From positions 32,001-96,000 of the IMG/VR virus record IMGVR_UViG_3300049893_001984: a stretch of DNA of 64,000 nucleotides. The stretch is one strand, 5' to 3'. A program made the translations under genes and the position numbers. The notes under the pieces are model-generated. The model saw nothing but the letters and a program-made list of their open reading frames with translations. It was not told the origin of the DNA and did not search any database. The stretch is from a virus. Positions 10,860-28,654 of this stretch are shown here, piece after piece (the first letter of the stretch is position 1; each line of letters opens with the position of its first letter).

Positions 10860-10895
10860 CAAAGAAAAGGGACCAGGCCAGTGACCTGGTCCCTT
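10860..10895 (-). terminator. Terminator downstream of the major capsid gene
   Basis: AAGGGACCAGG (10867-10877) / CCTGGTCCCTT (10885-10895) 11-bp stem followed by TTCTTTG on the minus strand. Confidence 0.75.
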
Positions 10896-11955: not shown

Positions 11956-12357
11956 TTACTTGCCCTTCTTTTTGTCTCTTTGTGCGCGTTGCCAAGCTAG
12001 AAGCGCGAGTCCGGAAAGTCCTGGAGGGGGCGCTTCAGGAATTGGCTTGCTGCTGGGGTAAACAGAGAACCCACTGCTTCCGGTTCTCGGTTTTGGTTCT
12101 GGGACGTATTTACTTCCTTCCCAGTTTGGCGTTGGTGCCATAGACACCGTTCCGCCTGCGACAGAAGGCTTGTCCCCGCTGAAAATAGGGTTGTTCAGTT
12201 TTGCGCGCAAACCTTCAGGAAATATACTGGCAACACCTTTACCTGTTGCAGCTAGCGTCCCTCTAGCAACGTCATATAGAGCCCCAAGAGGAACCATGCC
12301 CTCTTTTTGGAGCCCGCTATTAGTGGCTTCTTTAATCAGATATTTAAGGTGGTTCAT
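11956..12357 (-). CDS. Putative internal head protein with N-terminal tag MNHLKYLIKEA
   Basis: 133 aa; shared tag; basic C-terminus; sits between the decoration and MCP genes. Confidence 0.65.
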   Translation of the reverse strand: MNHLKYLIKEATNSGLQKEGMVPLGALYDVARGTLAATGKGVASIFPEGLRAKLNNPIFSGDKPSVAGGTVSMAPTPNWEGSKYVPEPKPRTGSSGFSVYPSSKPIPEAPPPGLSGLALLAWQRAQRDKKKGK

Positions 12358-12377
12358 AGCTACAACCTCGTCGTAGG

Positions 12378-12415
12378 GTTAAGGGTGGTTATGCTTAGCC
12401 ATAACCACCCTTAAC
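12378..12415. other. Perfect 16-bp intergenic hairpin with no U-tract
   Basis: GTTAAGGGTGGTTATG (12378-12393) / CATAACCACCCTTAAC (12400-12415), 6-nt loop. Confidence 0.8.
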
Positions 12416-12421
12416 ACTAGT

Positions 12422-12931
12422 TTAGTACTTCGGAATAAAGACCGGCCAGAAGCGAACCACACTCTTGCGATAGGAGTTCGTGAACGGAGCCGTAATATCC
12501 GAGACTATTCCAACGATGGTCTTAGCGTAAGAACCAGTGTTAACCACTTCAAGCTTTCCAGGAGTGGCGCCAGCCGGATCCGAACCAAGCGCAGCGTTCG
12601 GAACGAAGCCTGTTCCGGCGTATTCCGTGCTTTCCAGTTCATAACCACCGGTAGCAACGAGACACATCCATTTTCCACCAGAGATGTTACCGACGTCCGA
12701 ATTGGTATCGAAGTCGTTAAGATTCTGGAAAACAAACATCGGCATTGCAAAGTTAGCAGCGCCAAGAACGCCCTTCGCGCTCGAGTTAAGGGCAACCACC
12801 ATACCCGCGTTCATAGCGGTGACAGACGCGTCCATGGTGACAGCTTTGTCGAGAGCATAGGGTGACGGCCAACCCTTAACAGGGTTAAGCTCGTGGTCGA
12901 ACATTTGGGCGGGTGTAAGAGTACCTGGCAT
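12422..12931 (-). CDS. Putative head decoration/cement protein
   Basis: 169 aa, small-residue beta-rich, strongly biased codons, upstream of the MCP gene; SD GGAGG. Confidence 0.55.
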   Translation of the reverse strand: MPGTLTPAQMFDHELNPVKGWPSPYALDKAVTMDASVTAMNAGMVVALNSSAKGVLGAANFAMPMFVFQNLNDFDTNSDVGNISGGKWMCLVATGGYELESTEYAGTGFVPNAALGSDPAGATPGKLEVVNTGSYAKTIVGIVSDITAPFTNSYRKSVVRFWPVFIPKY

Positions 12932-13007
12932 TTTGAATTCCTCCGTTTTCGTTTATAGCGGCATCCTATAATAGGTTTTCCGCGTTTAGTGTTATTTGCT
13001 TTTATTC

Positions 13008-13358
13008 TTACTGAATAAGTCCGAAATCGCGCAAGAACTTATCGTCAGCAGCACTACCTTTTTCCGCTTTTTCAGTTGAAGCCGACTTGGAAATCATCGG
13101 TTCACCCAAGGGAGCAACCATGGAAGTTTTGCGGTGGAACTCAGCCGCAGTCTTCTCAAGACTCTCTAGAGCACGCAAGGGGTCTTGCAATGAAACTATA
13201 GCCTGAGAGCGCTGATTCTCAAGCAGGAAACCAGCCTTAATCAGAGCGTCGACAGTGCTCGGCGCTTTATTAGCAATCGATCTTTCAAGCTCAGCAGCCT
13301 TTGCAAGCAAAGGTTGTGTAGCTTTCACGTACTCAACGTATTTCTTTTCAACACTCAT
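13008..13358 (-). CDS. Putative scaffold-associated helical protein
   Basis: 116 aa, helical; KTAA and KSAS motifs; SD GGAGG. Confidence 0.5.
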   Translation of the reverse strand: MSVEKKYVEYVKATQPLLAKAAELERSIANKAPSTVDALIKAGFLLENQRSQAIVSLQDPLRALESLEKTAAEFHRKTSMVAPLGEPMISKSASTEKAEKGSAADDKFLRDFGLIQ

Positions 13359-13402
13359 TTTATACCTCCGGGATGTTTTGTCAGGTGTTGACCTAACTTA
13401 GT

Positions 13403-14428
13403 TTAAGCACCAGGCATGCCGGGAGGCATTCCGCCAGGAGCTTCTCCGCCGCCACCACCATGTTCGGCTTCAATCTGCTGAATGGCCTGAGCGAGTTCCT
13501 CAGGAGTTACGCCAGCTTCCTGCAAAGCCTGAGCAAGCTGTTCAAGATGCTCGTCAGCTCCGCCGCCTTCGCCACCTTCGCCGCCCATCATATGCGGGTT
13601 ACCAGCCTCATCAGAGGCGGTTTCCTCTGCACTACCCGCTGCCATAGCGTCGTTGGACATAGGAGCGCCTTCGCCAGGCTGTTCGTCTCCGTCAGGTTCG
13701 CCAGCTCTCTTCATGTGAACCTTGTTCAAGCCTGCAATGTGCCCCGCAAGAAACTGAACATACCGTTCGGCATCCTCCTCAGCACTCTTGATGATAGATT
13801 CTACCACGCTTTGCGCGACTTGAGTCTGGGCTGTTTCAGCCTCGGCTGACTTGGAAAACCCCAACTGCTCAGCCAGATGGCAAGCTGCCGCGTAACCAGC
13901 CTCGGCGTCTTCTCTGTACTGTTCAGCCGCAGCCTCTTTGCTAAGCCCCTGTTCTTCCGTGCAACCCTCTTCATGTGAAGACTGCTTCTCCAGCTCAGCC
14001 AGCAAGTCAGCACCTAGTGCCGCCGCTGCAGAGAAAGAGGAGTACTTTTCGCTGAAGGTAGAGTTGCTCGGATGACCGGAAGATTCCTGAGGCTTGTCCT
14101 TACCCGACTTAGGGTGAGCGACATTGCCCTTAACTTCCCCGGCTTCCATCTTCTGCGTTCCAATGGAATCGGCCGGATCTTTTCCGTCGACAGAGTTGGC
14201 GTCTTCCTGCCCGCTGACATTGCTATTAGTATCAGCCGCGTCACCCTTATTCTCAGCGGAACGGGCACCTTCACGCGCCTTCATTGTACCGTCATCCGCA
14301 TCCATGACCGGGTGGGTCGTGGGTTTGGAGGGATCGGTAGCCTGCTTAATAGAGGCACGCTTCTCGGTGCGGACTTCTGTCAGAAACTTGTCCATAAGGT
14401 CAAGCACATCAACGTTCATCTTACTCAT
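13403..14428 (-). CDS. Putative prohead scaffold protein
   Basis: 341 aa, acidic and low complexity; many KxA motifs (KRAS, KQAT, KEAA, KSAE x2, KRAG); lies between protease and MCP. Confidence 0.55.
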   Translation of the reverse strand: MSKMNVDVLDLMDKFLTEVRTEKRASIKQATDPSKPTTHPVMDADDGTMKAREGARSAENKGDAADTNSNVSGQEDANSVDGKDPADSIGTQKMEAGEVKGNVAHPKSGKDKPQESSGHPSNSTFSEKYSSFSAAAALGADLLAELEKQSSHEEGCTEEQGLSKEAAAEQYREDAEAGYAAACHLAEQLGFSKSAEAETAQTQVAQSVVESIIKSAEEDAERYVQFLAGHIAGLNKVHMKRAGEPDGDEQPGEGAPMSNDAMAAGSAEETASDEAGNPHMMGGEGGEGGGADEHLEQLAQALQEAGVTPEELAQAIQQIEAEHGGGGGEAPGGMPPGMPGA

Positions 14429-14464
14429 TTTATGTCTCCTACGTTATGCCCCGTTTGTGAGCGT

Positions 14465-15916
14465 TTACACTTTAATGTAGTTACGCATTACAAGCAAGGT
14501 GTTAGTTATTGGATCGTTACCCGTGAGACTAGCAAACGACAGCTGATACTTTACGTACTCCTTGGCCAGCTCAGCCGCTTTCACGGAGCAAGAAGCGGTT
14601 TTAACTGATCCAAGGTTCTTAAAAGCAGGCTCATCTCCACGTACCGTGGCGGCTAAAACCCTGCGCTGAACTTTATTCTCTGCGATAGAGTAGTCGTTTT
14701 GCAACTCCTCGGCTACCTTTACCGCCGACAAAGGGTATACATTAGTTGGGCTGTAAGCACAACTATCTATACAAGTTTCCAAGTCGAAGTTGCTTATATT
14801 AGAGTACATACCAGGAAGCAAAGCTTCAACCTCTGAAGCTTCTTTATAACTCCCTTGGCCTGTAAGGGTAAGGAAATCCATTACAGATAACGGAATCTTA
14901 GCAGAACCAAGAGCGCTAAGGGCGTGGGCAGTCTTGTGCGACTTCAACTCTTCCATAGCTTTACTTGGTATGTTCTTGGTGCAACAGCCCAAGGCTAGCT
15001 TGTTTGCCAGGTGCTTGTTGTCAGCACCAGCAGCTACGGCTTCGATCTTCTTCTCAATCTCAGCCAGCTTTTTGGCGGCAGAGAGCTTAACGGCGGCGTA
15101 CTTGGAAGATACGCCAAGGAGTTCGACTGGAGCCGATACCCCCAGCTCTTCTGCCAGCTCAGCTCCGCCAATTGGCCGCTCCAAAACAGAAGCAACCTTC
15201 TGCAGGGACCAAGCTATTCGGTCTGCAGGGCGGACTACCTTTGATATATCAAAGAAGGTGGGCTGGTCGTTAATAGCAAAAACCTGGTGCCCACTCTTAA
15301 TAATAGAAGTCATGTGGTCTCGCAGGTGCTCGCAGTATTCCCCGCGATGCTTTGCTTTGTTACCACAGATAGAACAAATATCGTAAGGAACCTTGGCAGC
15401 CATCGAGAATGGGATGTCTTTACCAGAAGCAAGCTTCTGCAAGTCACCTTCCCACTCTTTATCGTGAGGAACCTTTATGACAAGTTCGCCGCGATGCATG
15501 TCTTTATTATAAGCAGCCGCCTTTATCTGTCCGATAGACTTGGCAGGGTCGTCGTTCTTGTGATGCTTATAGACATGCCCGTGCTTCATAAACGTGCTGT
15601 CGTGCCGACCTATTAGGCCGTCAACCATGTCGTAGTACCCAGGCTGACCCGGCTTAGGGAAAGGGATGGTGAAGCGAGCTTGTTTCTCGTTGAACCCGTC
15701 ACCATTCCTGTTATTGCCGAACATCTCCATAGCACCAAGGGAGATCAAATGAATAAGGCTGTGACCAGGCTCTGGCCGAAGCTCGGCCATCTTAGGAGTG
15801 AACAATGCAGCACGTTTCTGCATCCACGATCGATCTACGCCCCTGGAATGCACATCCATAAGACGTGCAACCGGGGTTCCAAAATCGAATGAGTCGCTGG
15901 TTATAACCTTGATCAT
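14465..15916 (-). CDS. Prohead maturation protease (HK97/assemblin-type fold, inferred) with Cys/His Zn site
   Basis: 483 aa; GNNRNGDGF, YKHHKN (candidate His), PFSMAAKV (candidate Ser), CSIC...CEH; canonical position upstream of scaffold and MCP. Confidence 0.7.
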   Translation of the reverse strand: MIKVITSDSFDFGTPVARLMDVHSRGVDRSWMQKRAALFTPKMAELRPEPGHSLIHLISLGAMEMFGNNRNGDGFNEKQARFTIPFPKPGQPGYYDMVDGLIGRHDSTFMKHGHVYKHHKNDDPAKSIGQIKAAAYNKDMHRGELVIKVPHDKEWEGDLQKLASGKDIPFSMAAKVPYDICSICGNKAKHRGEYCEHLRDHMTSIIKSGHQVFAINDQPTFFDISKVVRPADRIAWSLQKVASVLERPIGGAELAEELGVSAPVELLGVSSKYAAVKLSAAKKLAEIEKKIEAVAAGADNKHLANKLALGCCTKNIPSKAMEELKSHKTAHALSALGSAKIPLSVMDFLTLTGQGSYKEASEVEALLPGMYSNISNFDLETCIDSCAYSPTNVYPLSAVKVAEELQNDYSIAENKVQRRVLAATVRGDEPAFKNLGSVKTASCSVKAAELAKEYVKYQLSFASLTGNDPITNTLLVMRNYIKV

Positions 15917-15927
15917 GTTTAACCCCG

Positions 15928-16569
15928 TTAGTAAGTCATGTGGACCTTGTCAACACGCTTATCTCCTGTGCTTGCGATTGTTGCAAGCCTTCTTTGCATG
16001 TTGTCAATGTAGCTAGATAGGTACTGGGACCTCGGTATGTTAGGCAGGTCACCTATAGCTGGGCCTGTGTGATGGTTGTGTATATACGCGCCAGGTGATC
16101 GCAGCTGATAGGCAGGCTCAGCAACATGGCTAAGGCTGATAGGCCCTGGCATTATACCTGGTTTTACCACCCTTTCAGAAACGAGCTTATTAACAGTCTT
16201 ACGCGCATCAGATTTCGCCGTTTGTAAGGGATCTCCGCCATAATTATTCCACCCTGTGGCCATGTTTTTATTAAGCGCCTCAAGGCCTGGCTTCAAGGAT
16301 AGCGTAGCGCTACGGTCTCCAGCAGCAGGTGCCATGGTGTGGCTCACCATGTTCATAACGCTTTTAACTCTATCGGATGGAAGGCTAGATATTGCGTCTA
16401 ACTCTCTTTCTCTGCGCCACTGTGGGCCGTACCTGTGATGTTCGTCTCTATACTGGATTGGAACTGGTTTACCTTTGTTAGCTTCGCTCATAAGACGAGA
16501 GCGCATGGCGTGAAATATGACATTATCAGGGTTTAGCGCCGTTTTGATAAGATAGCCTAGATGGTTCAT
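15928..16569 (-). CDS. Putative internal head protein with N-terminal tag MNHLGYLIKTA
   Basis: 213 aa; shared tag; tightly coupled to its neighbours. Confidence 0.65.
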   Translation of the reverse strand: MNHLGYLIKTALNPDNVIFHAMRSRLMSEANKGKPVPIQYRDEHHRYGPQWRRERELDAISSLPSDRVKSVMNMVSHTMAPAAGDRSATLSLKPGLEALNKNMATGWNNYGGDPLQTAKSDARKTVNKLVSERVVKPGIMPGPISLSHVAEPAYQLRSPGAYIHNHHTGPAIGDLPNIPRSQYLSSYIDNMQRRLATIASTGDKRVDKVHMTY

Positions 16570-16570
16570 C

Positions 16571-17869
16571 CTACATGCTCCTTTGTTTCAAGGCATCCCT
16601 GAGTTGCTGCATCTGTTCCTGATTAAGTATAACCGCGTTCTGATGTAACCCACTCTCATAAGCAGGCACTGGCCGTTTAATAAAAGAAGTGACCGGCGAC
16701 CTTCTGATTAATTGAGCCTTTTCAACCATATTTGCCCCTGGGCTGAGGAACATGGCATTCCCTTCGCCAGCAGACAGTATGTTTCCTGGGAGTCGGTATA
16801 CACCACCGTCACCAGGGCCTAGTTTACGCGGAGAAAATAGGGGACCTGTAACTGAGGCTTTCTTCAGCGTAGGAAGCTTCTTAATTAACTCATCCCGTTC
16901 CTGTGCTTTGCGCTGCGCCTCTTCTTCCTGATCCTGGGCGTTAAGTCTTGCCCGGACAGCAGCTTCGCCACCTTCTGACTTACGCCACAAAGCGCGTGCA
17001 GCGAACGGAATACCGCTCAGAACGGCACCGCCTGCCATACCTAAGGCAGGTCCGAGCCATTTATACTTCGGAGCCTGGTAAGCCGCTTGAGGCGGGGCGT
17101 CTTTCTTGCCCTTACCACTATCGCCGGGTTTAAACGCTCTTGCCTCATTGTTAATGGCTGCCACTGCGCCAGGACCATACCGTCCTACCAGATCATCCCT
17201 GATCTTCATTGCTTCAGGGCTTGGTTTACCAAACCACTTATTTTCAGAGAAGGCTTCAGCTATTAGCTCAGGGCTTTTAAACCCAATTGAATTGACTACA
17301 TTTTGGGCTAGCTCTCCGCGTAGCTTCATTAAGCGGCCCATATGAGCTTCGGCTTGAGCTGGCGTGTAATGAGGGTACTTATGCTTTATCAAAACTTCTG
17401 CTGGGGCTTGGAAATGCTGCTTAAACTTATACTTTTCAAGTTCGGACAATCGGTCCTGGAACTTGCTGTCCATAAACAATTTCTTAGCAACATCACCGCT
17501 AACCGGTGCGTACTTCTTAGCGAGATGGTGGCCATACACGCCGCCAGCAATAGCAGCGCCTCCACGAATAGCCGCCTCGCCCAAGGTCTGGGGAATAGGA
17601 ATAAGCGTTCGCCCTACGCCAGTACTTATGTATCCAGACGTAGAAGTGTCCTCATCGCTAGCCCGCGAATCTGCCAACTCATGAAGCCGAGCAGCGTGGC
17701 GACGTGCAATTTCTTCTTGAGCGGCTAGTGTCTCAAACTTACTACGCGTTTTAGCCAGCTCTTCGTGATTAGGATTTGCAGCAGGAGGGGCCTCAGCTAA
17801 TGCACCTGCGGCCTGCTTTTGCATCTTAGCCGTTATGCACATTCGTGCTAGTTTTTCACTGATGTCCAT
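16571..17869 (-). CDS. Putative internal head/ejection protein
   Basis: 432 aa; QKQAA and KKAS motifs; two Gly-rich hydrophobic helices. Confidence 0.6.
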   Translation of the reverse strand: MDISEKLARMCITAKMQKQAAGALAEAPPAANPNHEELAKTRSKFETLAAQEEIARRHAARLHELADSRASDEDTSTSGYISTGVGRTLIPIPQTLGEAAIRGGAAIAGGVYGHHLAKKYAPVSGDVAKKLFMDSKFQDRLSELEKYKFKQHFQAPAEVLIKHKYPHYTPAQAEAHMGRLMKLRGELAQNVVNSIGFKSPELIAEAFSENKWFGKPSPEAMKIRDDLVGRYGPGAVAAINNEARAFKPGDSGKGKKDAPPQAAYQAPKYKWLGPALGMAGGAVLSGIPFAARALWRKSEGGEAAVRARLNAQDQEEEAQRKAQERDELIKKLPTLKKASVTGPLFSPRKLGPGDGGVYRLPGNILSAGEGNAMFLSPGANMVEKAQLIRRSPVTSFIKRPVPAYESGLHQNAVILNQEQMQQLRDALKQRSM

Positions 17870-17878
17870 AACTTCTCC

Positions 17879-19270
17879 TTAGTCTGATTTGGCCTTAGGC
17901 TTTGAGGAGGCGCCTGCTATAGGGGACATTAGCGGGATGTCTTCCTGCATGTCGCGCAAACGTTTCTCAATCTGAGATAGCTGGTGGGCCTCAAAAGGTT
18001 CCATTACACCTTCCTGCTGGATAACCTTATGCAGAACTCCACGCATCAAAGCAGGATGCTGACTTGCCAAAGGCGCAAACTGAGCCACGTGGTTGTACGC
18101 ACCATATACTTGGTGCGGCTCGTACGCAGACAGTATAGGGTCATTCGCCACAAAATCATTCAGCATTGTTTTAGTCTTTGCAGCCTGTAGTTCTGCTTCA
18201 TGCGTGGGGTCAAATACATCATTAATAGCGTCCATACGTGTCTCTACGCCTTTAGGCTTAAGCCCCAAAGCAGAAGTCACGCTAGACCCAACGCCACTAA
18301 TAATGGGTCCCTTAAGATCTTCAACATCAAGCGCGGACTTGGCCATACTCTCTTCAGCATCTTCATCGGAAGCGAGTAAAGAACCAAGCAAGGAGGAAGG
18401 TTTTGTGTTTTGTCGCCTTGCTGCTTGTTTAATGGGAGAACGTGCCGCCGCAGAGGCTGCTTCAGCACGGGCGTTAGCTGCTTTCTCACTTTGTTCAAAT
18501 AGAGTGTAGGCTTCGTCGATCACGCGTTTGATCTGACCGTAAGGCTTTTTAGCCTCGTCAAAAGTCATGTGACGACGAGGGTACTCCTCGGCTCGCTTCT
18601 CTTTTAGTTTCCCGACCGCGTAGATCATGTCCATGCAGGTCTTGCCTACGCTGCCGAATGTAGCAACCGCTCTTTTCTCAACCTCAGAGAACGGAGAGTG
18701 CCCGATCGTGTGGAAATATTCAGATGCTTCTTGAGCCAAGGAAGCGACCTTCAAGAACTGGGCTCTATATTCACCGTCGGCGTAGTTAGCTAACTTCTCT
18801 AACCCCTTGGCCTTATCTATGCTCTTTCCGTCAGCCCATTCTTTATCTCTGTCGTATGCGCTCGGTTTAAGAGACCACTCAGTGGGAAGATCGTTGCGGG
18901 CGTAGGATTTCTTGGTGAAGTCAGTGCGCTCAGCAGCAAGGGCGTCAGAGTGCAGCTCAAAAGCCGCAGACTTCTCAGACTCCCACATTGGCTTTTCAGG
19001 ATACATACGCTCAAGAATAGCAGCGGGGTCAGCGAGCGGGAAGTTCTCCGCCCGATCCACTCCGCTAGCTTGCTTCATGTGTGCAAGCGTGCGCGAAACA
19101 TTGAATGCCTCGCACGCACGCTTTATAAGCTGCGGGTTAAACTTGTTAAGGCTAGCCACCTTATGGATAGCATCGGTTGGGTGCGTGCCGCTGTTGCTGT
19201 CACGAATAGCGGATTCAATAGCCTTGACGATTCTTTCTTCGTCAACCTTGCTCAACTTCTCTATACTCAT
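17879..19270 (-). CDS. Putative internal head protein
   Basis: 463 aa, helical; KQAS, KSAA, KQAA and KSAL motifs. Confidence 0.65.
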   Translation of the reverse strand: MSIEKLSKVDEERIVKAIESAIRDSNSGTHPTDAIHKVASLNKFNPQLIKRACEAFNVSRTLAHMKQASGVDRAENFPLADPAAILERMYPEKPMWESEKSAAFELHSDALAAERTDFTKKSYARNDLPTEWSLKPSAYDRDKEWADGKSIDKAKGLEKLANYADGEYRAQFLKVASLAQEASEYFHTIGHSPFSEVEKRAVATFGSVGKTCMDMIYAVGKLKEKRAEEYPRRHMTFDEAKKPYGQIKRVIDEAYTLFEQSEKAANARAEAASAAARSPIKQAARRQNTKPSSLLGSLLASDEDAEESMAKSALDVEDLKGPIISGVGSSVTSALGLKPKGVETRMDAINDVFDPTHEAELQAAKTKTMLNDFVANDPILSAYEPHQVYGAYNHVAQFAPLASQHPALMRGVLHKVIQQEGVMEPFEAHQLSQIEKRLRDMQEDIPLMSPIAGASSKPKAKSD

Positions 19271-20121: not shown

Positions 20122-20126
20122 TTTCC

Positions 20127-22406
20127 TTATCCGTTAGCCAGGTCAACTTCGGAGTTGGCGTCGTTATCCGGCTCAATAGTCTTCTGCTTCAAGAACAACG
20201 ACAGCTCGCCCAGGTTCTTAAACACATTACGAAGGTTGTCCTCGAGCTCAACCATGTCCTGACGGCCATAGCGGTCTTTGAACTTATCGTTATGCCAATA
20301 GAACATAAACAGGATTCTACCAACCCGGTCAAGGCCCAACAGCAAATCACCGATGTAGCTGTCGATCGTGGAGTCGGTATCAACCGTCTTAACCAACCCA
20401 GAGATGACAGACGTATCGAGAATTTCCTTCTGGCCCATCTGGCTGGCCTGTTGTGCGTTGTTACGGGCATCTTCGTCAATATACATGCTCCGCGTATAGT
20501 TATCACGGTTTCCAGAGGAGTTGATAGTGCCAAGCCCCTGAAGCATGGTTTGCGGATAATGCGTTTTGACCTGAAGCCCAGGTTCGGACCCGTACAGCGG
20601 GTCAGGGAAACTTGCCTGATTAGGCACATCGCCGCTGGCTGTATAGGTGAATGCGTATTTCAAGAAATGAATGTCGCTCTTGCTTCGCCCGCCCTGCACC
20701 TGGCTAACAAGGTAATCAACGCTGTCCTCAGACAAACCCTTATTCTCAATAAGGTCCTGATACAGGGCTGATTTTGTCAGTCTGGCACTATGCTGCCCGT
20801 CCAGAACAACAGTATACCGTACCCCGTCGCTACGAACCTGCAGCTGATGGTAACCTTCCTTCAACTCAGCGGATTTGTAGATGTCAGCAACGATGTTAGA
20901 AGGATTGCAAAGGTTCAGTTTGGGCTGGAACCAGTTGTAACCCTTGCTCTTCTCGTTCTTAAGCTTGATGACCTTGACCTTCTTGCCAATATAGAAAGCG
21001 CTTCCAAGGTGTTCAATGGAATCGTTATCCTTGTCGGTCAGATGGATCGTGGTGTCGTGATTACCGCAACAGAATCTAGGGGTCGTGCCATAAATGCCCT
21101 GCCGCTCGTAGTTTACACGGGGGCTGAACACCTGCGTAGCGTCTGTATGGGTTCTGACAGTGAAGTCGGTCGTGCCTTCGCTGTCAGTCCACTTGGAGTC
21201 AATACACATAGGCATCGTGCCGGTACCGTCTTCCCGTACCAGAACAAAGAAGTCGCCCATGGAAAGGCTACTGGGGCCAGACAACCCTTCAAACTTCTTC
21301 TGCCAATCAGAGAAGTGCTGCTTGGAGGTCATGATGTCATGAGGCGCGAAGAGGCCGTAATCCTTCGTGTCCCAGTCTATCACAAGGGCCAGGTTTGAAC
21401 CTCTACCAGGCTCCAATGCATGCTTGGGCCCGATAATTACCAAGGCTTCAATAGTGTCGCTCTTGGAGTTGACGACGTCGTAAAACCCTGTCTGACCTGG
21501 GTTTGTGTGGGCAGCTGCAATCTGTGTCTTGTACAGTCTGCTCTTTTCGCCGTCTTTACGTTTATCTCTGACAACGAAGCCGCTACACAAGACCTTGGAC
21601 TTCTCGGCCTCTGTGAGCTCTTCTTCGCCGTTGCTGCCATTGAAGGATGTGATAACGCGCACCTTGGGGAAGGTGTGCTCACCTTTACGCATCTTCTTCT
21701 GCAGCTCTTCCTGATCCACAAGGTCCTGAGCGAGCTTAGTGCTGAGCAGTTCGTCAGGGTCGTAGAACTTCAAAATAGCATCAGCAAAGTCATGATCCTT
21801 GCGCATAGTCTGCACAAGATTAATAGCTGCCTTCTTGCCCAGGATCTTAAGGGCGGCAGGGATTGTGAACTTCTCTTCAAGAGAAGCAAACTTCTCAGAT
21901 CGCGGGCTAGTCAGGAAAGCGGAGTCCATAAAATCCTGCATGTCAGGATCCATGCGCGCTCGTATTTCCTTGAAGCTCGGGCGCTTAGCTGAGGCGTACT
22001 TTGACCCGATATAAGGCGTGCGTGCCAGGATATCAAAGTCAGGCTGCCTCAGGCCCAGGCGATGCCTAGGCGTTTTCTCTGTAGACCCGAGGATCTGGGG
22101 TCTACGGTTAAGAATATAGTTAACCCATTCCTCCGTAAGCGGAACGAAGGCGTCCTGACTCTTGATAAACAAGAGTTCATGACCTTTGAGTTCTCCATTG
22201 ATGAAGAACACAGGGGCATACACTAGCTCCGAGCCTACTTTAAAGCCGTAAACACCTACGGCATGGGTTTCCTCGTCATTCTTGTCAATCAACTGGAAAC
22301 CCAAAATGTAGTCGAGAAGGGTCGGAGCCTTGTCACGCATGCGGGCGTAGGCAAGGTCCGAAAATGTCTTCTCATAATTACTTTCTGTAGATTTAGGACC
22401 CGGCAT
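20127..22406 (-). CDS. Large putative virion core protein
   Basis: 759 aa; KYAS, KFAS, KLAQ, KSAE, KSAL and KYAF motifs separating globular segments. Confidence 0.65.
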   Translation of the reverse strand: MPGPKSTESNYEKTFSDLAYARMRDKAPTLLDYILGFQLIDKNDEETHAVGVYGFKVGSELVYAPVFFINGELKGHELLFIKSQDAFVPLTEEWVNYILNRRPQILGSTEKTPRHRLGLRQPDFDILARTPYIGSKYASAKRPSFKEIRARMDPDMQDFMDSAFLTSPRSEKFASLEEKFTIPAALKILGKKAAINLVQTMRKDHDFADAILKFYDPDELLSTKLAQDLVDQEELQKKMRKGEHTFPKVRVITSFNGSNGEEELTEAEKSKVLCSGFVVRDKRKDGEKSRLYKTQIAAAHTNPGQTGFYDVVNSKSDTIEALVIIGPKHALEPGRGSNLALVIDWDTKDYGLFAPHDIMTSKQHFSDWQKKFEGLSGPSSLSMGDFFVLVREDGTGTMPMCIDSKWTDSEGTTDFTVRTHTDATQVFSPRVNYERQGIYGTTPRFCCGNHDTTIHLTDKDNDSIEHLGSAFYIGKKVKVIKLKNEKSKGYNWFQPKLNLCNPSNIVADIYKSAELKEGYHQLQVRSDGVRYTVVLDGQHSARLTKSALYQDLIENKGLSEDSVDYLVSQVQGGRSKSDIHFLKYAFTYTASGDVPNQASFPDPLYGSEPGLQVKTHYPQTMLQGLGTINSSGNRDNYTRSMYIDEDARNNAQQASQMGQKEILDTSVISGLVKTVDTDSTIDSYIGDLLLGLDRVGRILFMFYWHNDKFKDRYGRQDMVELEDNLRNVFKNLGELSLFLKQKTIEPDNDANSEVDLANG

Positions 22407-22449
22407 TTTCTACCCCTTTCAGCTAGTGTGTTATTTGGTATCAAACCTA

Positions 22450-23163
22450 TTAACGGAACATGCCACCCATCGGCATACCGCCAAACCCACCGCTGTACAT
22501 ACCGCCGCCACCAGACCTGGCCAAGTTGCCCATCATTTCATTCATTTCAAGATTACGCTGCTGGTTCTTCAGCGCCATCTGATTGACCTGCTGCATGGTG
22601 CGCGGGTCCTGTCCACCCCACGAGGTGGTGCTACCCATACCAGCGCCGGGGGCTGTGTTCATCCACCGATTATACAGGTGACCGAGCCCAGCTGCTCCAA
22701 CCAAGCCACCAGCGCCAAGCCCGAGCATGAGGGGCCAACCGGCTTGTTTCTTGAAGAACTCTGCGCGAACACGCCCAACAGGCAGCTTGTTGTCATTAGC
22801 CACTTTAGCAAACAACTGATGCGGTATCTTGTTGACGTTACCGGCGTAACCATGGTGGGCAGCCAGAAGCTCGAGCTGGTGAACAGCCAAAGCAGTGTCA
22901 GACGCCATTTTTGGCATCTCCACTTCATTGTTAGGAACTCTACCCTTATCAGTTGCTGGTGCAGTTATGTTGGTGTCGTGCTTAGGAACGTCCATTTTAG
23001 ACGTGAGTGAACTGTTAGGCTTTGTAATCTTCGGAGCACTTTTAGCCCCTTCAGACTGCTTTGCCTCTGGCGCCGCACCTTCATTAGCCTTTTTCTGCAT
23101 CCAATAGGACAGGAGGCTCTTAAGTTGAATGTTTTCGGCTTGTTTTCTCATGCTCTTACTCAT
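22450..23163 (-). CDS. Putative internal head protein with Gly-rich hydrophobic helix
   Basis: 237 aa; KKQA followed by GWPLMLGLGAGGLVGAAGLGHLY; GGM-rich tail. Confidence 0.6.
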   Translation of the reverse strand: MSKSMRKQAENIQLKSLLSYWMQKKANEGAAPEAKQSEGAKSAPKITKPNSSLTSKMDVPKHDTNITAPATDKGRVPNNEVEMPKMASDTALAVHQLELLAAHHGYAGNVNKIPHQLFAKVANDNKLPVGRVRAEFFKKQAGWPLMLGLGAGGLVGAAGLGHLYNRWMNTAPGAGMGSTTSWGGQDPRTMQQVNQMALKNQQRNLEMNEMMGNLARSGGGGMYSGGFGGMPMGGMFR

Positions 23164-23187
23164 TTTAAAGTCTCCATTGACTAAGGG

Positions 23188-25032
23188 TTAGTAACCAACG
23201 CCATCAGGCGGTTTACCAAACTCGGTGCCTTGTGCCAGTGCTGGTATATACGAAGTTCCGTGCACATTGGAATCTCTGCCGCGATGGGTTGACTCAAGCA
23301 ACCCTTTCTTAGACTGCCATCCGCCCAACCTGACCATCCAATCATCAGCGTGCGACAGTGTTTCCATCGCGCGCTGCATTTCAGGTTGAAACGATGGCGG
23401 GTCCACGTGCGCCTTAACAGTTCCGAACTTATGCTCGTCTAAAGTCTTTATTACACTTGGTGTTATCTTTGTTCCTATAGAGTAATGTAACGCCGGTTGC
23501 TCTAGATACAAGCCTCTGGCTTGTTTAGGCTCCAGTGTTTTATGTCCAAAACGAGGTTTGTAGTCGCGGACAAGATTATCGTACTCAACGACGTCATCAG
23601 GAACTGTGTCATGTGGGCCGTCAATATCAGTAACCTGTACGTGATTTATAAGCCCCCTCGATAACAATTCCACGTTCCGTCTATGTGCAGCGAGTCCTGA
23701 CTCCTTTAGTGTTTTGTGCAGGTAATCAGTGAAGTAACGTCTCCCTTCACCAATCCCTTTGTGACGGACAATGTCTGCTGGGTTAGGTATGCCTGTAGAC
23801 ATAATGTCACCAGCTTCCACTTCATCACCTTTCTTTACGTGAATATTTTCATCCGCAGGTGCCCAGTGCTGTGTGTTACCCACATAAATGTAGTTACCGC
23901 CTTGGGGGGCTGGCTCAATCCTCTCTACCCTGCCTTCTACCTGTGAAATGGCGGCTGCCCCTGCAAACGTTTTAGGAACTTGGACTAACTGAGTAATAAG
24001 GTCTAAGCCTTGCTTCGTCTGCTTCTTTACACCAGATACAAGACCGCCTCCATGCTTTGTTCCAAGTTGGCCCTGTCCGATCGGTTCACTTATTGCCTGC
24101 GCGGCTGCGATTCCGGGGTTATCACCGATTGGTGAAAATCCGTTTCTTTCGTGAATGCCAACACACTTCTGGCAAACACCGTGAGAAGACTGACATGAGA
24201 TAGGTGAGCGTACAACTATTTTCTTGTCGCCAAGCGTCTGAAGGTGCTTCGGAGTCAATATAGTTCCAGCCGCAAGTCCACCTGCTGGAAAAGCTAGAAC
24301 AGCCCCCTCATTCTCGGGGTCGCTAGCACTAACTGGCATACCATTAACTGTTCCACAATCCTTCTCGGTAATCATGAGCCGGTGTGCGGCCAAGGCCATC
24401 TGTTTACCAAGGAACCCCGCTTTAGGGGTGGCAAACTTAGTGGCAACGCTGCCCTTTCTAGCGCCGTAAGAACCAGCCCAGTACTGAACAGGGTCAAGCC
24501 CCTCGGCATAGCTGGAAAGAATGGGGATGGGGATAGGCTGATCCTTATGGTCAGCCACCATCAAATCTCCAGCTGTCATAGACCGAAACTGTGCTTTATT
24601 ACCGCGTGACCCGGAGTGGACCTGGACTGCCAATGAGTTATTGTTCTTGAAGTGTTCTTCAAAGTTGGCCTTTTCTACAGGATCCACATACGGGACTACA
24701 GTAGACACAATTTCCTTATCTTTGGCAGTCTGGTCTATTGGTTTGGTTAAAATATTATTTATCTTACCCTGCAACTCATCGCGTAACTTCTTTACGCCCT
24801 CTGGCGGCTTAAGGTTAGAAAGGGAGAAAGAAGTCTCTCTCCCGTGCGTAGTTATGATCTTTGTGGCTATGTTATGCAGCTTCTGATTGATCTCTGAGTA
24901 TTTGTCTGGATAACGTTCGGCCACCTGGGTCATCAAATTCTTGAGACCCTTTTTATCAATAACGCGGCTGCTGTCCCGAAGGTCTTCGGGCAGTGCCTCG
25001 TTAAGCATAAGCTGGCCTACAGTCATTTCCAT
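23188..25032 (-). CDS. rpoC: DNA-directed RNA polymerase beta' C-terminal part (phage multisubunit RNAP)
   Basis: 614 aa; bridge helix GARKG...AGFLGKQM; DCGT; RSPISC...GVCQKCVG Zn site; trigger-loop GIAAAQAISEPIGQGQLGTKHGGG. Confidence 0.9.
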   Translation of the reverse strand: MEMTVGQLMLNEALPEDLRDSSRVIDKKGLKNLMTQVAERYPDKYSEINQKLHNIATKIITTHGRETSFSLSNLKPPEGVKKLRDELQGKINNILTKPIDQTAKDKEIVSTVVPYVDPVEKANFEEHFKNNNSLAVQVHSGSRGNKAQFRSMTAGDLMVADHKDQPIPIPILSSYAEGLDPVQYWAGSYGARKGSVATKFATPKAGFLGKQMALAAHRLMITEKDCGTVNGMPVSASDPENEGAVLAFPAGGLAAGTILTPKHLQTLGDKKIVVRSPISCQSSHGVCQKCVGIHERNGFSPIGDNPGIAAAQAISEPIGQGQLGTKHGGGLVSGVKKQTKQGLDLITQLVQVPKTFAGAAAISQVEGRVERIEPAPQGGNYIYVGNTQHWAPADENIHVKKGDEVEAGDIMSTGIPNPADIVRHKGIGEGRRYFTDYLHKTLKESGLAAHRRNVELLSRGLINHVQVTDIDGPHDTVPDDVVEYDNLVRDYKPRFGHKTLEPKQARGLYLEQPALHYSIGTKITPSVIKTLDEHKFGTVKAHVDPPSFQPEMQRAMETLSHADDWMVRLGGWQSKKGLLESTHRGRDSNVHGTSYIPALAQGTEFGKPPDGVGY

Positions 25033-26696
25033 TAATGCATCGCTCCCATGGATCCAGGTACGGTACCTAAGTGTTTAGCACCCGGAGCCGTCCTACCAAT
25101 TGTGGTAGTTTCCTTCGAAGTTCCACCAGGCCCGCTGCTCTCGGTTGTAGTTGATGTGCCAGTGACCGGCGTGTTTCGCATCCTCTGTTTATCTTTGTAA
25201 GCCCGCTCAGCCTCAGATCTAAGGCCTGGATTGCTTAACCTGCTGAGGTCAGGCTTTTGTGTTATGTTACTTCCTATAGGCTTGTTGTTTATCTCCGTCG
25301 TCGTTGTGGTCGACTTAGCCGCTGGCGCTTGTGTTTCCGGTGGAGATGACATAGGCGCCGTTGCTGCCGCTGGTTCTTGTGTGGCTGCGGGTGCCTGCAA
25401 AGGAGCGGAAGGGGCTGCTTGCGCTCCAGCCATACCGCCAGTCATACCAGTAGCAGTACTACCCGCCATACCTCCAGTCATGCTAGCAGCTGTACCACCA
25501 GCCATACCGCCAGTCATGCCAGTAGTCGTACTACCGGCTGCACTACCCGCCGTACTACCAGCCGTACCACCAGCTGTGCTTCCCCCAGGACCTTCCGGCT
25601 TAGGTACAGCCGCATCAGCAGGTTTACTAGCCGTCGCACCTGAATTCGTCGGTGCTCCTGCCATACCAGACATACCACCCATCGCAGCGCTCATGCCAAT
25701 ACTCTTACCCTTTGCCTGGTTATTAGCCAATGGGGGGGTTGGCACTACGCTTTCTCTAGGATGCCCTTCATGCTCTTTCTCTGAGATCCCAGGGCGGGTA
25801 TACCGTTCTTTCAGTGCAGTTTTCAACTCAGGGAACTTTGCGGCCAACCGCTCTTTCTCTTTCTGGCTAGCTCCACCGTACATACGAAGAACCTGTCCTG
25901 GGTCCATATTATTGGCCAAAGCAGTTTCAATCTTTTGATCTATGCCACTTCTGCGTGCGTCACGCATCTTCAGCATTTCATCTCTTCCGCCTTCGTTCCA
26001 TGAGCGATCTATCTTCTCGGCGGCAGTATGCGGATCTTTACCGAACAGACCCTGCCAGGCCATTGAACCTAAGCCTTTTACAGTTCCTGTAATGGGAGAC
26101 AACCAACCGCCACCCATCGTTGTGTCTTTGTATGTCTTCTGTCCAGCTTCGAACGCGTCTCTAAAATCCCCATCACCCCAAAGAAACCCAGCCAGCTTGC
26201 TCATTGCTTCTGCGTCTTCTTTGTCGAAACCATTTTCAGCGCAAAATCTGTCAATGCCAAACTGAAAAGCGGCCATCTTGTTGGCTAAAACTATTGGGTT
26301 TAAAGGAGCTGAAACAGCTCCAGTAACTGGATCTTGAACGATGACCGGCTGTCCACCGTTAAGATCCTGCATTTTTGCTTGCTCGTAAAGCATTTGTCGC
26401 TGACGTTCTTTAATAATCTCTTTTTGCATCTTATATGTATCTTCGTACATCTTAGCTGCTTGGTCGTGCATCTGCGCAACATTAGCTACCTGCTGCTGAG
26501 TCGTGTCCATGCCTACTGCTTTATTGGCCATAACCTGCATACCAGTTCCGAGGCCAGTTTGTACGGCCAAGGTGGGGCCTTGCTCTTTAGTGATGCTCCA
26601 AATAGCAGCGGGTGCCTTTCGCACGTTTTTAATAATATCACGTACGAAAGCTTCCTTGGTAAGGTTTAGCTTTGAGATCTCGTATGGGTTATGCAT
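25032..26696 (-). CDS. Putative internal head protein, low-complexity C-terminus
   Basis: 554 aa; TKEAF and NKMAAFQFG motifs; GMTGGMAG repeats. Confidence 0.6.
   Translation of the reverse strand: MHNPYEISKLNLTKEAFVRDIIKNVRKAPAAIWSITKEQGPTLAVQTGLGTGMQVMANKAVGMDTTQQQVANVAQMHDQAAKMYEDTYKMQKEIIKERQRQMLYEQAKMQDLNGGQPVIVQDPVTGAVSAPLNPIVLANKMAAFQFGIDRFCAENGFDKEDAEAMSKLAGFLWGDGDFRDAFEAGQKTYKDTTMGGGWLSPITGTVKGLGSMAWQGLFGKDPHTAAEKIDRSWNEGGRDEMLKMRDARRSGIDQKIETALANNMDPGQVLRMYGGASQKEKERLAAKFPELKTALKERYTRPGISEKEHEGHPRESVVPTPPLANNQAKGKSIGMSAAMGGMSGMAGAPTNSGATASKPADAAVPKPEGPGGSTAGGTAGSTAGSAAGSTTTGMTGGMAGGTAASMTGGMAGSTATGMTGGMAGAQAAPSAPLQAPAATQEPAAATAPMSSPPETQAPAAKSTTTTTEINNKPIGSNITQKPDLSRLSNPGLRSEAERAYKDKQRMRNTPVTGTSTTTESSGPGGTSKETTTIGRTAPGAKHLGTVPGSMGAMH
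25429..25536. repeat. 36-nt tandem repeat x3 encoding xxxxMTGGMAGx
   Basis: Core GCCATACC(G/T)CCAGTCAT at 25429, 25465 and 25501. Confidence 0.85.
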
Positions 26697-26896
26697 CTTG
26701 CATTCAATCCTATACCAAGGCCCTTTAATACATTAACGAAGTCGGGCTCCCCGGCACTACATGTATATATACTACCCTTATCTAGCTTCTGCACAACGAG
26801 TATCGGGTTATTGAAATCATCGTAAACTACAATGGAGCGTAAGTCATTCAAAATGACCGGCTCCGATAGGTCGGAGCCGGTTGTCCGTGTGTGCAC
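26666..26896 (-). CDS. Small hypothetical protein
   Basis: 76 aa; GTG start with SD GAGGTG; fills the intergenic gap. Confidence 0.55.
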   Translation of the reverse strand: MHTRTTGSDLSEPVILNDLRSIVVYDDFNNPILVVQKLDKGSIYTCSAGEPDFVNVLKGLGIGLNARCITHTRSQS

Positions 26897-26918
26897 GATT
26901 ACACCTCTCTAAACCGGG

Positions 26919-27806
26919 TTAACCGCGTATAGCTCTCAGTATGTTCTTGATAGTTTTACGCCGGTCCTGGTCATGCTCGTAGGAAGCTTGAACCTGCATT
27001 CCGCCAGGAGCAGGCTGGCCACCTGCACTAGGGTCTGCCGGAGGAGCAGCGCCCATTGACGGGTCTCCGCCAACCATAGGAGTAGGTCCAGCCATATCAG
27101 GGGAAACCCCTGCCCCAATTGGGGCTGGCGCACCGCCAGGTTGATCTTGTCCACCAGCCGAGTCCTGACTCCCACCACTAGACTGGGGGGCAGAACCGCC
27201 TCCAATAGGGAGACCAAGTGCGCCAGCAATCTGCAGCATAATCTCTTTCATGGAGCGCACTTCTTTTTCTACGGCTTCCATGCGTATGTCGTTCTTGGCG
27301 CCCTTACCAGCTCCTTTAGCTCCGCCAGAGTTGGGGTCGTTAGGTGCACCTCCGCCTCCACCCTGCTGTCCGCCCATTGCTTGAGCTGCTTGCATAATTA
27401 GCTGCTGAAGATCCTGAGGCTGAAGCATAATAGGGGCGCCCGGTCCGCCACCTATCGCTGCCGGGTCTCCACCTTGGCTGGGGTCGGCTGGGGCTCCGCC
27501 GCCTTGACTGGGGTCGGGGGGCATCCCACCTGCTGAGGGGTCTTGGGGCGGCGGACCTCCAGGACCAGGAGGCGGCCCACCACCCATAGGGCCAGGAGCA
27601 CCACCACCAGGAGGCATGCCAGCAGGAGGCGGTCCTCCGGCCCCCATTGGGACGAACGCCCTTTTCTGGAGAGTTTCAGCTGTCTTTGCCGCGTTTGTTG
27701 CTGTTGCTGCCACAGCTGCCGCTGCAGCCTGCTTTGTGTGCTGCTGTGCGTAAGCCATTCGTGCTGCGAGTCTGGCTTTTTGGAATACATCGAATTCGCC
27801 TTTCAT
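26919..27806 (-). CDS. Pro/Gly-rich putative internal head protein
   Basis: 295 aa; KQAA and KRAF motifs, then GP/DPSxGG low-complexity blocks and a central coiled coil. Confidence 0.6.
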   Translation of the reverse strand: MKGEFDVFQKARLAARMAYAQQHTKQAAAAAVAATATNAAKTAETLQKRAFVPMGAGGPPPAGMPPGGGAPGPMGGGPPPGPGGPPPQDPSAGGMPPDPSQGGGAPADPSQGGDPAAIGGGPGAPIMLQPQDLQQLIMQAAQAMGGQQGGGGGAPNDPNSGGAKGAGKGAKNDIRMEAVEKEVRSMKEIMLQIAGALGLPIGGGSAPQSSGGSQDSAGGQDQPGGAPAPIGAGVSPDMAGPTPMVGGDPSMGAAPPADPSAGGQPAPGGMQVQASYEHDQDRRKTIKNILRAIRG

Positions 27807-27809
27807 GTC

Positions 27810-28061
27810 TTACCTTTCAAAACGGTTTAAGTTTCTGGCAATCCCTGCTCTAACTGGCGCGCGGCGCGCACCAGGTTTCTCGTTTGCAACAAGCTGATCT
27901 ATCGTCTTCTGCTTATCTGCATCCCACACATCCTCTATTGGATTACCATTACTGTCTTTGGCCGTCTGGGTCAAGGTATGATCCATAGCGGCACGACGAG
28001 CCTTCCAAGCCTCAGCCTGTTTCTGTAGTGCCATGCTTATAAGGTATCGGCAGTGGTTCAT
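27810..28061 (-). CDS. Small protein with N-terminal tag variant MNHCRYLISMA
   Basis: 83 aa; tag followed by LQKQAE; ATGA overlap with the upstream gene. Confidence 0.6.
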   Translation of the reverse strand: MNHCRYLISMALQKQAEAWKARRAAMDHTLTQTAKDSNGNPIEDVWDADKQKTIDQLVANEKPGARRAPVRAGIARNLNRFER

Positions 28062-28654
28062 TCTTGTCTTCCGCTAGCGCGCAGGGATTCAGCTATGAGC
28101 TTAGCTCGCTCTTCCTTACCATATCGTTGGGCGAGGTAACCAAGGCCTCCGCCAGCAGCAGTGCCTATCAAGGCGCCAATGCCTGGACGGCTAGAGTGAA
28201 GTTCGCCTAAAACTGCACCCAAGCTGCCCCCTGTTCCAGCGCCAAGGGCTGGTATTAGCCAAGGATTACGTGAACTTTCAGCTGCTTCGCCTAAAGCCAT
28301 AATTTCCTCTGGCTTATACTTGTGTTTCTTGTCTATACGCCCTTTGAGATGGTCGTTATATAGCGTGTCTACGTTATGGTCTTGTAGTTTGTTTTCTAGA
28401 TAACCAATACCAGCGCCAATACCTCCACCTACAGCCGCTCCAAGCCATGGCTTAGGATTGTCAAAACCATGGCTGGCGATGGCGCCTAACCCAGCACCTG
28501 CAAGTGAATTACCTCCAATGGTTAAAGCACGGGATAGGGGAGGGTTCATTTTATTCCGCATATACTCAGCAGCAGCGCCTTCGTCCAAATACAGGTCTGG
28601 TTCGTGAACAAACCCACTAACTGCGGATTTAATTAGATAGGACAAGTGTTTCAT
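28058..28654 (-). CDS. Glycine-zipper protein with N-terminal tag MKHLSYLIKSA
   Basis: 198 aa; two paired GxxxG hydrophobic hairpins. Confidence 0.65.
   Translation of the reverse strand: MKHLSYLIKSAVSGFVHEPDLYLDEGAAAEYMRNKMNPPLSRALTIGGNSLAGAGLGAIASHGFDNPKPWLGAAVGGGIGAGIGYLENKLQDHNVDTLYNDHLKGRIDKKHKYKPEEIMALGEAAESSRNPWLIPALGAGTGGSLGAVLGELHSSRPGIGALIGTAAGGGLGYLAQRYGKEERAKLIAESLRASGRQE

Follow-up and report, generated by a model that had tools for sequence, protein, structure and literature searches.

Four genes in a 64,000-nucleotide stretch of the phage record IMGVR_UViG_3300049893_001984 begin with nearly the same 11-residue peptide. They encode proteins that otherwise appear unrelated. What does this N-terminal peptide, called the tag below, do for them? 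The record (G000) is from an uncultured phage in IMG/VR. It contains 192,334 bases and is estimated to be 92% complete. The window, meaning the whole stretch analyzed, covers bases 32001 to 96000. Six tagged proteins were found in G000 and 13 in three sister genomes, 19 in total. On balance, the tag is probably a short cleavable N-terminal propeptide, similar to the capsid targeting sequence (CTS) of phage T4, on fast-changing basic internal head or ejection proteins.

Tagged proteins of G000

The tags in the window follow the pattern M-[NK]-H-[LC]-x-Y-L-I-[KS]-x-A. The first-pass annotation had reported four of these N termini (tags T1 to T4), and all four were confirmed on the minus strand (Table 1). 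Three of them end in K-x-A. Tag T3 has S-M-A at residues 9 to 11 and K-Q-A at residues 14 to 16, also as first described. Relaxed patterns run over all six frames of the window retrieved nothing beyond these four, all of which start at an ATG. The pattern search of the whole genome that had been suggested as a check retrieved two more tags: T0, a fifth exact copy, and T5, a sixth variant. The six tagged proteins range from 83 to 324 amino acids (aa).

Each tag starts at the first ATG past an in-frame stop located 4 to 10 codons upstream, behind a Shine-Dalgarno-like purine run. The 60 nucleotides (nt) upstream of the five exact copies were compared and are unrelated. In the tag codons, the proportion of synonymous differences (pS, Nei-Gojobori) was 0.91, versus a nonsynonymous proportion (pN) of 0.24. 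At the eight conserved positions, pN was 0.11. The synonymous sites are saturated and the upstream DNA is unrelated; therefore, purifying selection acts on the peptide, which is what the first reading of the locus had proposed. A shared DNA element or ribosome-binding site as the cause of the similarity was ruled out by the same unrelated upstream regions and saturated synonymous sites.

The carriers had been described as otherwise unlike, and this held. Pairwise comparison of the tag-trimmed G000 proteins gave no significant similarity; the best E value (0.3) came from a Gly-rich stretch of the proteins that carry tags T0 and T4. Searches of the cargo against PHROGs and Pfam retrieved nothing but a Gly-zipper in the protein with tag T4 and a weak Gly-zipper in one protein of a sister genome (G002 L074). 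The 198-aa protein with tag T4 contains two Gly-zipper segments, and its open reading frame (ORF) starts 2 nt after an RNA polymerase gene.

The protein with tag T5 contains the sequence HVERTLHTHPD, with no Pfam match. It gave JAB/MPN-like leads in the ESM Atlas, all of them sub-threshold (scores up to 0.79). A protein-database search with its N-terminal 79 residues retrieved only itself. Its homologue in sister genome G001 is also tagged (BLASTP E value of 2e-23).

Tags and cargo turnover in related phages

We recovered 65 related loci from IMG/VR, with capsid identities of 56 to 78%. The nearest cultured relatives are distant, and the subclade that carries the tag has no cultured member. 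They are Salmonella phage Arash (31% capsid identity) and also three Vibrio phages. A search of DNA for the pattern [YF]-L-[IVM]-K-x-A retrieved six matches in G001, five in G002, and five in G003, all on the coding strand, and the control gave 0 to 1. In each of these three sister genomes, four or five of the matches sit 5 to 7 codons after a start codon.

G001 encodes the tags MDAKAYLIKQA, MNAKAYLIKQA, MDYRGYLIKQA, and MDKKCAAYLIKEA. The tags of G002 are MSPHVFLIKEA, MMDCHLFLIKEA, MDKAGAFLIKQA, and MRDAESFLIKQA. G003 encodes MNARAYLVKRA, MMNSAREYLVKSA, MNSVRTYLIKLA, and MTQAHEYLIKAA. Judged from these sequences, the general tag is M-x(4-6)-[YF]-L-[IV]-K-x-A, and its first residues form a genome-specific "dialect."

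Cross-genome homologues among the tagged proteins amount to three pairs only. These are the protein with tag T5 and G001 L088, G001 L071 and G003 L073, and the protein with tag T0 and G002 L074 (weak). The protein with tag T1 and a syntenic tagged ORF of G001 (L079) have only YLIKEAT in common. Tagged genes sit at differing junctions of the conserved head module in each genome, and these slots are empty elsewhere; at the slot of tag T2, the sister genomes contain no gene. The mature parts of 16 of the 19 tagged proteins have an isoelectric point above 9.5, versus 15.6% of the ORFs of G000. Most cargos are strongly basic and soluble and have no hydrophobic segments. Several carry Gly-zipper segments. 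The sister tags on different, mostly unrelated, mostly basic proteins at differing gene junctions support the earlier description of the carriers as an exchangeable payload set.

The exact G000-type motif was absent from the capsid loci of the 65 relatives, and tblastn with the tagged proteins retrieved no homologue around the capsid gene in these loci. A scan of IMG/VR for the MNHLxYLIK dialect gave seven single matches on unrelated contigs, which is at chance level; within IMG/VR, the exact form is confined to G000. A first pairwise comparison of N termini was too noisy for use. Two more distant genomes contain a copy of the [YF]-L-[IVM]-K-x-A type only inside the portal protein.

K-x-A motifs in head proteins

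Many head proteins of G000 contain K-x-A near the N terminus. It is found as GIQKQA in the capsid protein, SIKQA in the scaffold, and MQKQA in the 432-aa head protein (p432). Relatives of the 463-aa head protein contain MRxLSKEA. Among the head-module proteins of 17 diverse genomes, K.A ranks first of 400 gapped residue pairs. It was observed 156 times in the N-terminal 44 residues (50.6 expected; z of 14.8) and 641 times beyond them (306 expected; z of 19); these counts use homologous proteins and measure conservation, not independent events. The pairs L.K and M.K are also enriched, which extends the motif to [LMIF]-x-K-x-A. The reverse pair A.K has a lower enrichment and is not among the top lists. 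For the tail proteins of the 17 genomes, K.A does not reach the top lists. Where a relative's locus was long enough for the capsid gene to be placed, K.A peaked at residues 21 to 40 of head-module ORFs, with 4.2% and 4.0% of positions there, versus about 0.3% in tail ORFs.

The capsid protein contains K27-Q-A29 (window positions 11754 to 11762). The invariant columns of the family alignment begin with K27 and A29, which have a variable-length N terminus before them and a conserved DAVNDY block after them. The AlphaFold model of the capsid protein (pLDDT of 53) was too poor to place K27-A29 relative to the fold. The end of the tag, L-I-K-x-A, equals the motif that is enriched and conserved in head proteins. 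From this agreement, K-x-A would be the cut site of the prohead protease. Mimicry of the Prp/L27-type host protease, a system of staphylococcal phage 80alpha, was set aside because the motif follows the head proteins and the protease that the phage itself encodes.

The portal protein contains HFLKYA at residues 580 to 585 (window positions 20652 to 20669, minus strand), which resembles the tag core. In five relatives, the portal motif is YIVKLA, FYVKQA, FFVKHA, YFVKYA, or FFIKYS. Across the six genomes it reads aromatic-hydrophobic-hydrophobic-K-x-A, with Ser replacing Ala in one. In most of these portals, a second motif, [LF]-L-[IV]-K-x-A, precedes it by about 12 residues, and the stretch downstream is Pro/Gly-rich and poorly conserved. 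Either cleavage within the C-terminal part by the protease or docking through a shared element could explain the portal motif.

The strongest K.A excess in the genome is in a 434-aa protein (G000:C1:166456-168367, plus strand), with 17 K.A versus 3.3 expected. It is followed by a 221-aa protein with a Met/Pro/Gly-rich tail. Both are far from the head module, and they may be further protease substrates or internal proteins.

The prohead protease

The protease was modeled with AlphaFold (pLDDT of 79). The model contains a mixed N-terminal domain (residues 14 to 229), a disordered linker, and a helical C-terminal half. The linker (residues 229 to 268) has low confidence, and the C-terminal half is scaffold-like and rich in K-x-A. 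In an exhaustive structural search with residues 14 to 229, the best match was gp21 of phage T4 (5jbl_A; Z of 9.0, root mean square deviation of 3.4 A, 140/165 residues). The protease of varicella-zoster virus (VZV) was next (Z of 5.7), and that of human cytomegalovirus (HCMV) was lower (Z of 4.1). PHROG 18299 matched the protease weakly. Searches of PDB sequences with the protease and its profile retrieved no relative, and Foldseek on the whole model gave a weak match (probability of 0.63). As modeled, G000 encodes a gp21-fold prohead protease among its head genes.

The protease contains 14 K.A versus 4.5 expected, and the proteases of relatives contain 6 to 20. K34-R-A36 is kept in 25 of 26 relatives and is a candidate N-terminal self-processing site. 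A candidate self-release site, K240-V-A242, comes directly after RPADRIA, where the protease fold ends. In 26 sequences, K240 is near-invariant and A242 is invariant, and the variable low-confidence linker lies downstream. The most likely specificity of the protease is L-x-K-x-A, with the cut after Ala. We infer this cut because K240-x-A242 shares its position with the herpesvirus site at the end of the protease domain. Among the invariant residues of the alignment are H56, H119, S171, and S225, and H105 is near-invariant; these are residues of the types that make up the Ser-His-His catalytic triad of gp21/assemblin-fold proteases.

A conserved Cys cluster (C174, C181, C184, and C195, with a CxxC) is present inside the protease domain (window positions 15332 to 15397, minus strand). 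Judged by these residues, it looks like a small zinc-binding insertion. We know of no such insertion in gp21 of phage T4. When protease residues ~115 to 243 were used as a tblastn query, the matches (E values in the range of 6e-6 to 1e-3) included gp19 of Bacillus phage G and, in about 200 cluster-C-type mycobacteriophages (Cali and I3 among them), a hypothetical protein. Members of the protease family are therefore found well outside the clade of G000.

The K-x-A layout of Arash is alike. Its capsid protein contains LVKEA, and its protease (gp222) contains LTKQA, with KVA after RPAD. The Arash scaffold contains 8 K.A versus 3 expected. Gly-zipper proteins of the Arash head module were annotated as structural after virion mass spectrometry (PMC10585845). 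One protein so annotated, gp221 (L004:15436-15987, plus strand), starts with MNHNEELLKGL..GLLKAA and contains Gly/Ala-rich hydrophobic segments. It faintly recalls the G000 tag and Gly-zipper cargo.

Proposed role of the tag

The substrates of gp21-family prohead proteases lie within the procapsid; core proteins and N-terminal propeptides are examples (PMC5694885). Six unrelated proteins with a conserved site 11 residues into the chain would therefore also be located inside the procapsid. Conservation of the tag exceeds a minimal site. It includes the aromatic residue at P6 and the genome-specific residues 2 to 5. Since the tag is the only shared part and is conserved beyond the minimal site, the simplest reading is that it brings the protein in and is then removed.

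The tagged proteins would be made late, alongside the head genes. The peptide M-x(4-6)-[YF]-L-[IV]-K-x-A would carry them into the assembling procapsid, and it may bind the scaffold core or the helical, scaffold-like C-terminal half of the protease. After the shell closes, the gp21-fold protease would cut after the Ala of L-x-K-x-A. The mature protein, in most cases strongly basic, would thereby become free within the head. It would travel with the DNA, and during ejection several Gly-zipper members may have a function at the host envelope. From one related phage to another, the cargo set changes quickly while the tag and the proposed protease site persist. The tag would be sufficient for packaging, and the cargo would be injected into the host. 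A DNA-associated internal role would suit the basic cargo, and a role in ejection, at the envelope, would suit the Gly-zipper cargo. A processed ejection protein of phage SPN3US has a transmembrane segment (PMC5694885).

Several points weigh against this explanation. Tags T3 and T5 end in S-M-A and T-Q-A, not in K-x-A. Tag T0 is among tail/baseplate genes, and tag T5 is far from the head module. Genomes G004 and G005 and the 60%-identity clade contain no long tag, just short N termini that end in K-x-A. The K.A counts carry the limit given above, and structural constraints could account for the conservation of K-x-A in the capsid protein and protease. The Arash paper contains virion protein lists and no processing sites (PMC10585845).

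It is unlikely that the tag is a mere pro-sequence, a protease site that keeps each protein inactive or unfolded until maturation while the cargo enters via its mature part. The core L-I-K-x-A does equal the general head motif [LMIF]-x-K-x-A, and in distant relatives many head proteins have very short N termini that end in K-x-A, with no upstream sequence in common, but the mature parts of the tagged proteins are unrelated, so that a separate docking surface would be required for each. Upstream of the core, residues are also kept within genomes (an aromatic residue at P6, N-H-L in G000, and D-A-K-A in G001). This upstream conservation, despite saturated synonymous change, exceeds the needs of a cut site.

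An address or regulatory signal unconnected with the capsid, such as one for membrane insertion or anchoring of small Gly-zipper proteins, tail/baseplate assembly, or N-terminal degradation, is quite improbable. On this account, K-x-A would be a coincidence, yet the end of the tag matches the motif of the capsid, scaffold, and protease residue for residue. The position of tag T0 among tail genes agrees with such a signal, whereas four of the six tagged genes are within head operons. The proteins with tags T0 and T4 and several members in the sister genomes have Gly-zipper or hydrophobic segments, as a membrane role might require, but most cargos are soluble and strongly basic and have no hydrophobic segments. 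The tag is also too short and too charged for a secretion signal.

That the tagged genes are old paralogues with diverged bodies or gene-converted 5' ends is very improbable: the per-genome dialect in residues 2 to 5 could reflect spread within a genome, but a pS of 0.91 with the peptide kept rules out recent conversion, proteins of such different lengths have no detectable similarity, and the syntenic pair of the tag T1 protein and G001 L079 retains YLIKEAT alone, which points to active selection on the tag.

The propeptide explanation can be widened to the clade. It is possible, if somewhat short of probable, that a clade of uncultured ~190-kb phages with a virion RNA polymerase evolved its own portable load-and-cleave tag, read by a gp21-fold protease that cuts after the Ala of L-x-K-x-A and has a herpesvirus-like release-type site. 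If this is true, the tag is a second, sequence-independent example of the CTS principle of phage T4, and the principle evolves repeatedly. Phage and herpesvirus maturation would then be linked by the protease not only in fold but also in specificity. Very few phages have a short capsid-targeting tag that is established by experiment, and that of phage T4 became a tool for loading foreign proteins into heads. With the tag as a simple sequence rule, the injected proteins of uncultured phages, probably including anti-defense factors, could also be located. Arash shares the K-x-A pattern, which makes the central inference testable in a cultured phage by ordinary virion mass spectrometry.

The late head module

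The late module is on the minus strand and spans 10.4 to 34.6 kb of the window (Table 1). Its order includes a gene for a small helical protein besides the decoration, scaffold-like, protease, head, and portal genes. It also encodes several low-complexity proteins and two RNA polymerase genes. The tagged genes of the module are tightly packed in late head operons that end in terminators.

TABLE 1 Features of G000 (window positions unless marked as genome positions)
Feature	Position	Strand	Description
Tag T0, MNHLKYLIKTA	genome 19667	-	243-aa protein, among tail/baseplate genes; whole-genome six-frame scan
Tag T1, MNHLKYLIKEA	12325-12357	-	N terminus of 133-aa ORF 11956-12357, between decoration and capsid genes
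Tag T2, MNHLGYLIKTA	16537-16569	-	N terminus of 213-aa ORF 15928-16569, between 432-aa protein and protease
Tag T3, MNHCRYLISMA, then LQKQA	28029-28061	-	N terminus of 83-aa ORF 27810-28061
Tag T4, MKHLSYLIKSA	28622-28654	-	N terminus of 198-aa ORF 28058-28654
Tag T5, MYLKYLITQA	genome 182134-183108	+	324-aa protein; whole-genome six-frame scan
Terminator-like hairpin (strong)	10867-10895	-	3' of capsid gene; closes decoration-T1-capsid transcription unit
Major capsid protein	10905-11840	-	311 aa; family alignment
Decoration protein	12422-12931	-	Late module
Scaffold-like protein	13403-14428	-	341 aa; N-terminal EKRASIKQA; twin K-x-A here in relatives
Prohead protease	14465-15916	-	483 aa; modeled gp21 fold N-terminal, helical C-terminal half
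Protease K240-V-A242	15191-15199	-	Candidate self-release site
Protease K34-R-A36	15809-15817	-	Candidate N-terminal self-processing site
Two head-module proteins	16571-19270	-	432 aa and 463 aa; K-x-A near N terminus
Portal	20127-22406	-	759 aa; internal motif HFLKYA
p237	22450-23163	-	237 aa; MRKQA and MQKKA near N terminus; Gly/Met-rich C-terminal tail
RNA polymerase genes	23188-25032 and 28657-34608	-	Interleaved with head genes
p554 and p295	25032-27806	-	Low-complexity proteins of 554 aa (LTKEA) and 295 aa (HTKQA); N-terminal motifs
Terminator-like hairpin	26856-26881	-	3' of 295-aa gene; closes RNA polymerase-T4-T3-p295 unit

The proteins p237, p554, and p295 are largely of low complexity. 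They contain Gly/Met-rich or Gly/Pro/Ala/Thr-rich stretches, each with K-x-A near the N terminus; an example is the C terminus of p237, GGMYSGGFGGMPMGGMFR. p237 is probably an internal head protein, and p554 and p295 probably belong to the internal head or ejection proteins. An 11-bp perfect hairpin (GGGTGGTTATG...CATAACCACCC) with no T-run is present between the decoration gene and tag T1 (window positions 12358 to 12421, minus strand). It may be an RNA stability or processing element of the capsid operon.

One of the RNA polymerase products (1983 aa) appears to contain an intein-like insertion. In Arash virions, the beta and beta-prime subunits of RNA polymerase are among the most abundant proteins (PMC10585845), and because of this the polymerase is taken to be packaged in the Arash-related family. 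By analogy, it is likely packaged in the G000 virion too.

Comparison with known systems

A search of the literature on capsid targeting sequences found only that of phage T4, that of DarB in phage P1, and the long propeptides of giant phages. Like the giant phages phiKZ, 201phi2-1, and SPN3US, G000 contains genes for a probable virion RNA polymerase among its head genes (PMC5694885, PMC9026906). In phages of the phiKZ type, a gp21-like protease processes many internal and ejection proteins (PMC5694885, PMC9026906). The SPN3US paralogues gp53 and gp54 have identical N termini, and one ejection protein there has a membrane segment. In contrast to the G000 tags, the propeptides of giant phages are mostly longer than 100 residues and are cut after Glu (S/A/G-x-E). 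No single short tag is common to unrelated proteins there.

In phage P1, an N-terminal peptide of DarB suffices to send a reporter into the capsid (PMC9024508), a likeness to the proposed role of the tag. Unlike the tag, the DarB signal is longer than 9 residues and at most 30, is described for DarB alone, and is not described as a protease-cleaved tag (PMC9024508).

Herpesvirus proteases cut after Ala, and the sites of pseudorabies virus include YLQA-T and VQA-S (PMC4498786). The herpesvirus protease is released from the C-terminal scaffold part at a site that ends the protease domain (PMC4498786). The G000 protease would share with assemblin an Ala at P1. It also contains a protease domain, a linker, and a scaffold-like C-terminal part, with the conserved site (K240-x-A242) at the end of the domain. 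Structural similarity to the VZV and HCMV enzymes is weak, and gp21 of phage T4 is a much better match. Unlike the herpesvirus sites, the phage motif has a fixed Lys (P3) and a fixed hydrophobic residue (P5). To our knowledge, there are no short cargo tags in herpesviruses.

The closest parallel is the CTS of phage T4. Of its 10 aa, positions 4 and 7 serve in targeting and positions 8 and 10 in processing (PMC9026906). It is on IPI-III and Alt and is cut by gp21 (Mullaney and Black 1996; PMC9026906, PMC3012670, PMC10229621). The internal proteins of phage T4 are diverse, and the CTS alone is conserved (PMC3012670). Similarly, the tag is a peptide of about 10 residues at the extreme N terminus of diverse, mostly basic proteins. 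Hydrophobic or aromatic residues precede its putative protease motif, in which P3 and P1 are fixed, G000 encodes a gp21-fold protease, and the cargo set differs among related phages. The two peptides have no sequence similarity. The CTS is cut after Glu (L/I-x-E), whereas the tag would be cut after Ala (L-x-K-x-A). All the G000 tags end in Ala, and only tag T1 contains a Glu, at P2. Studied phage relatives of gp21 cut after Glu (PMC9026906, PMC5694885), and a cut after Ala would differ from every one characterized. The G000 protease also differs from gp21 in its long helical C-terminal half and its Cys cluster. Targeting and cleavage, established for the CTS of phage T4, are predictions for the G000 tag. 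The K-x-A end of the tag, the gp21-fold protease, and the late head operons support the CTS-like reading proposed in the first-pass annotation, with a likeness of function and not of homology.

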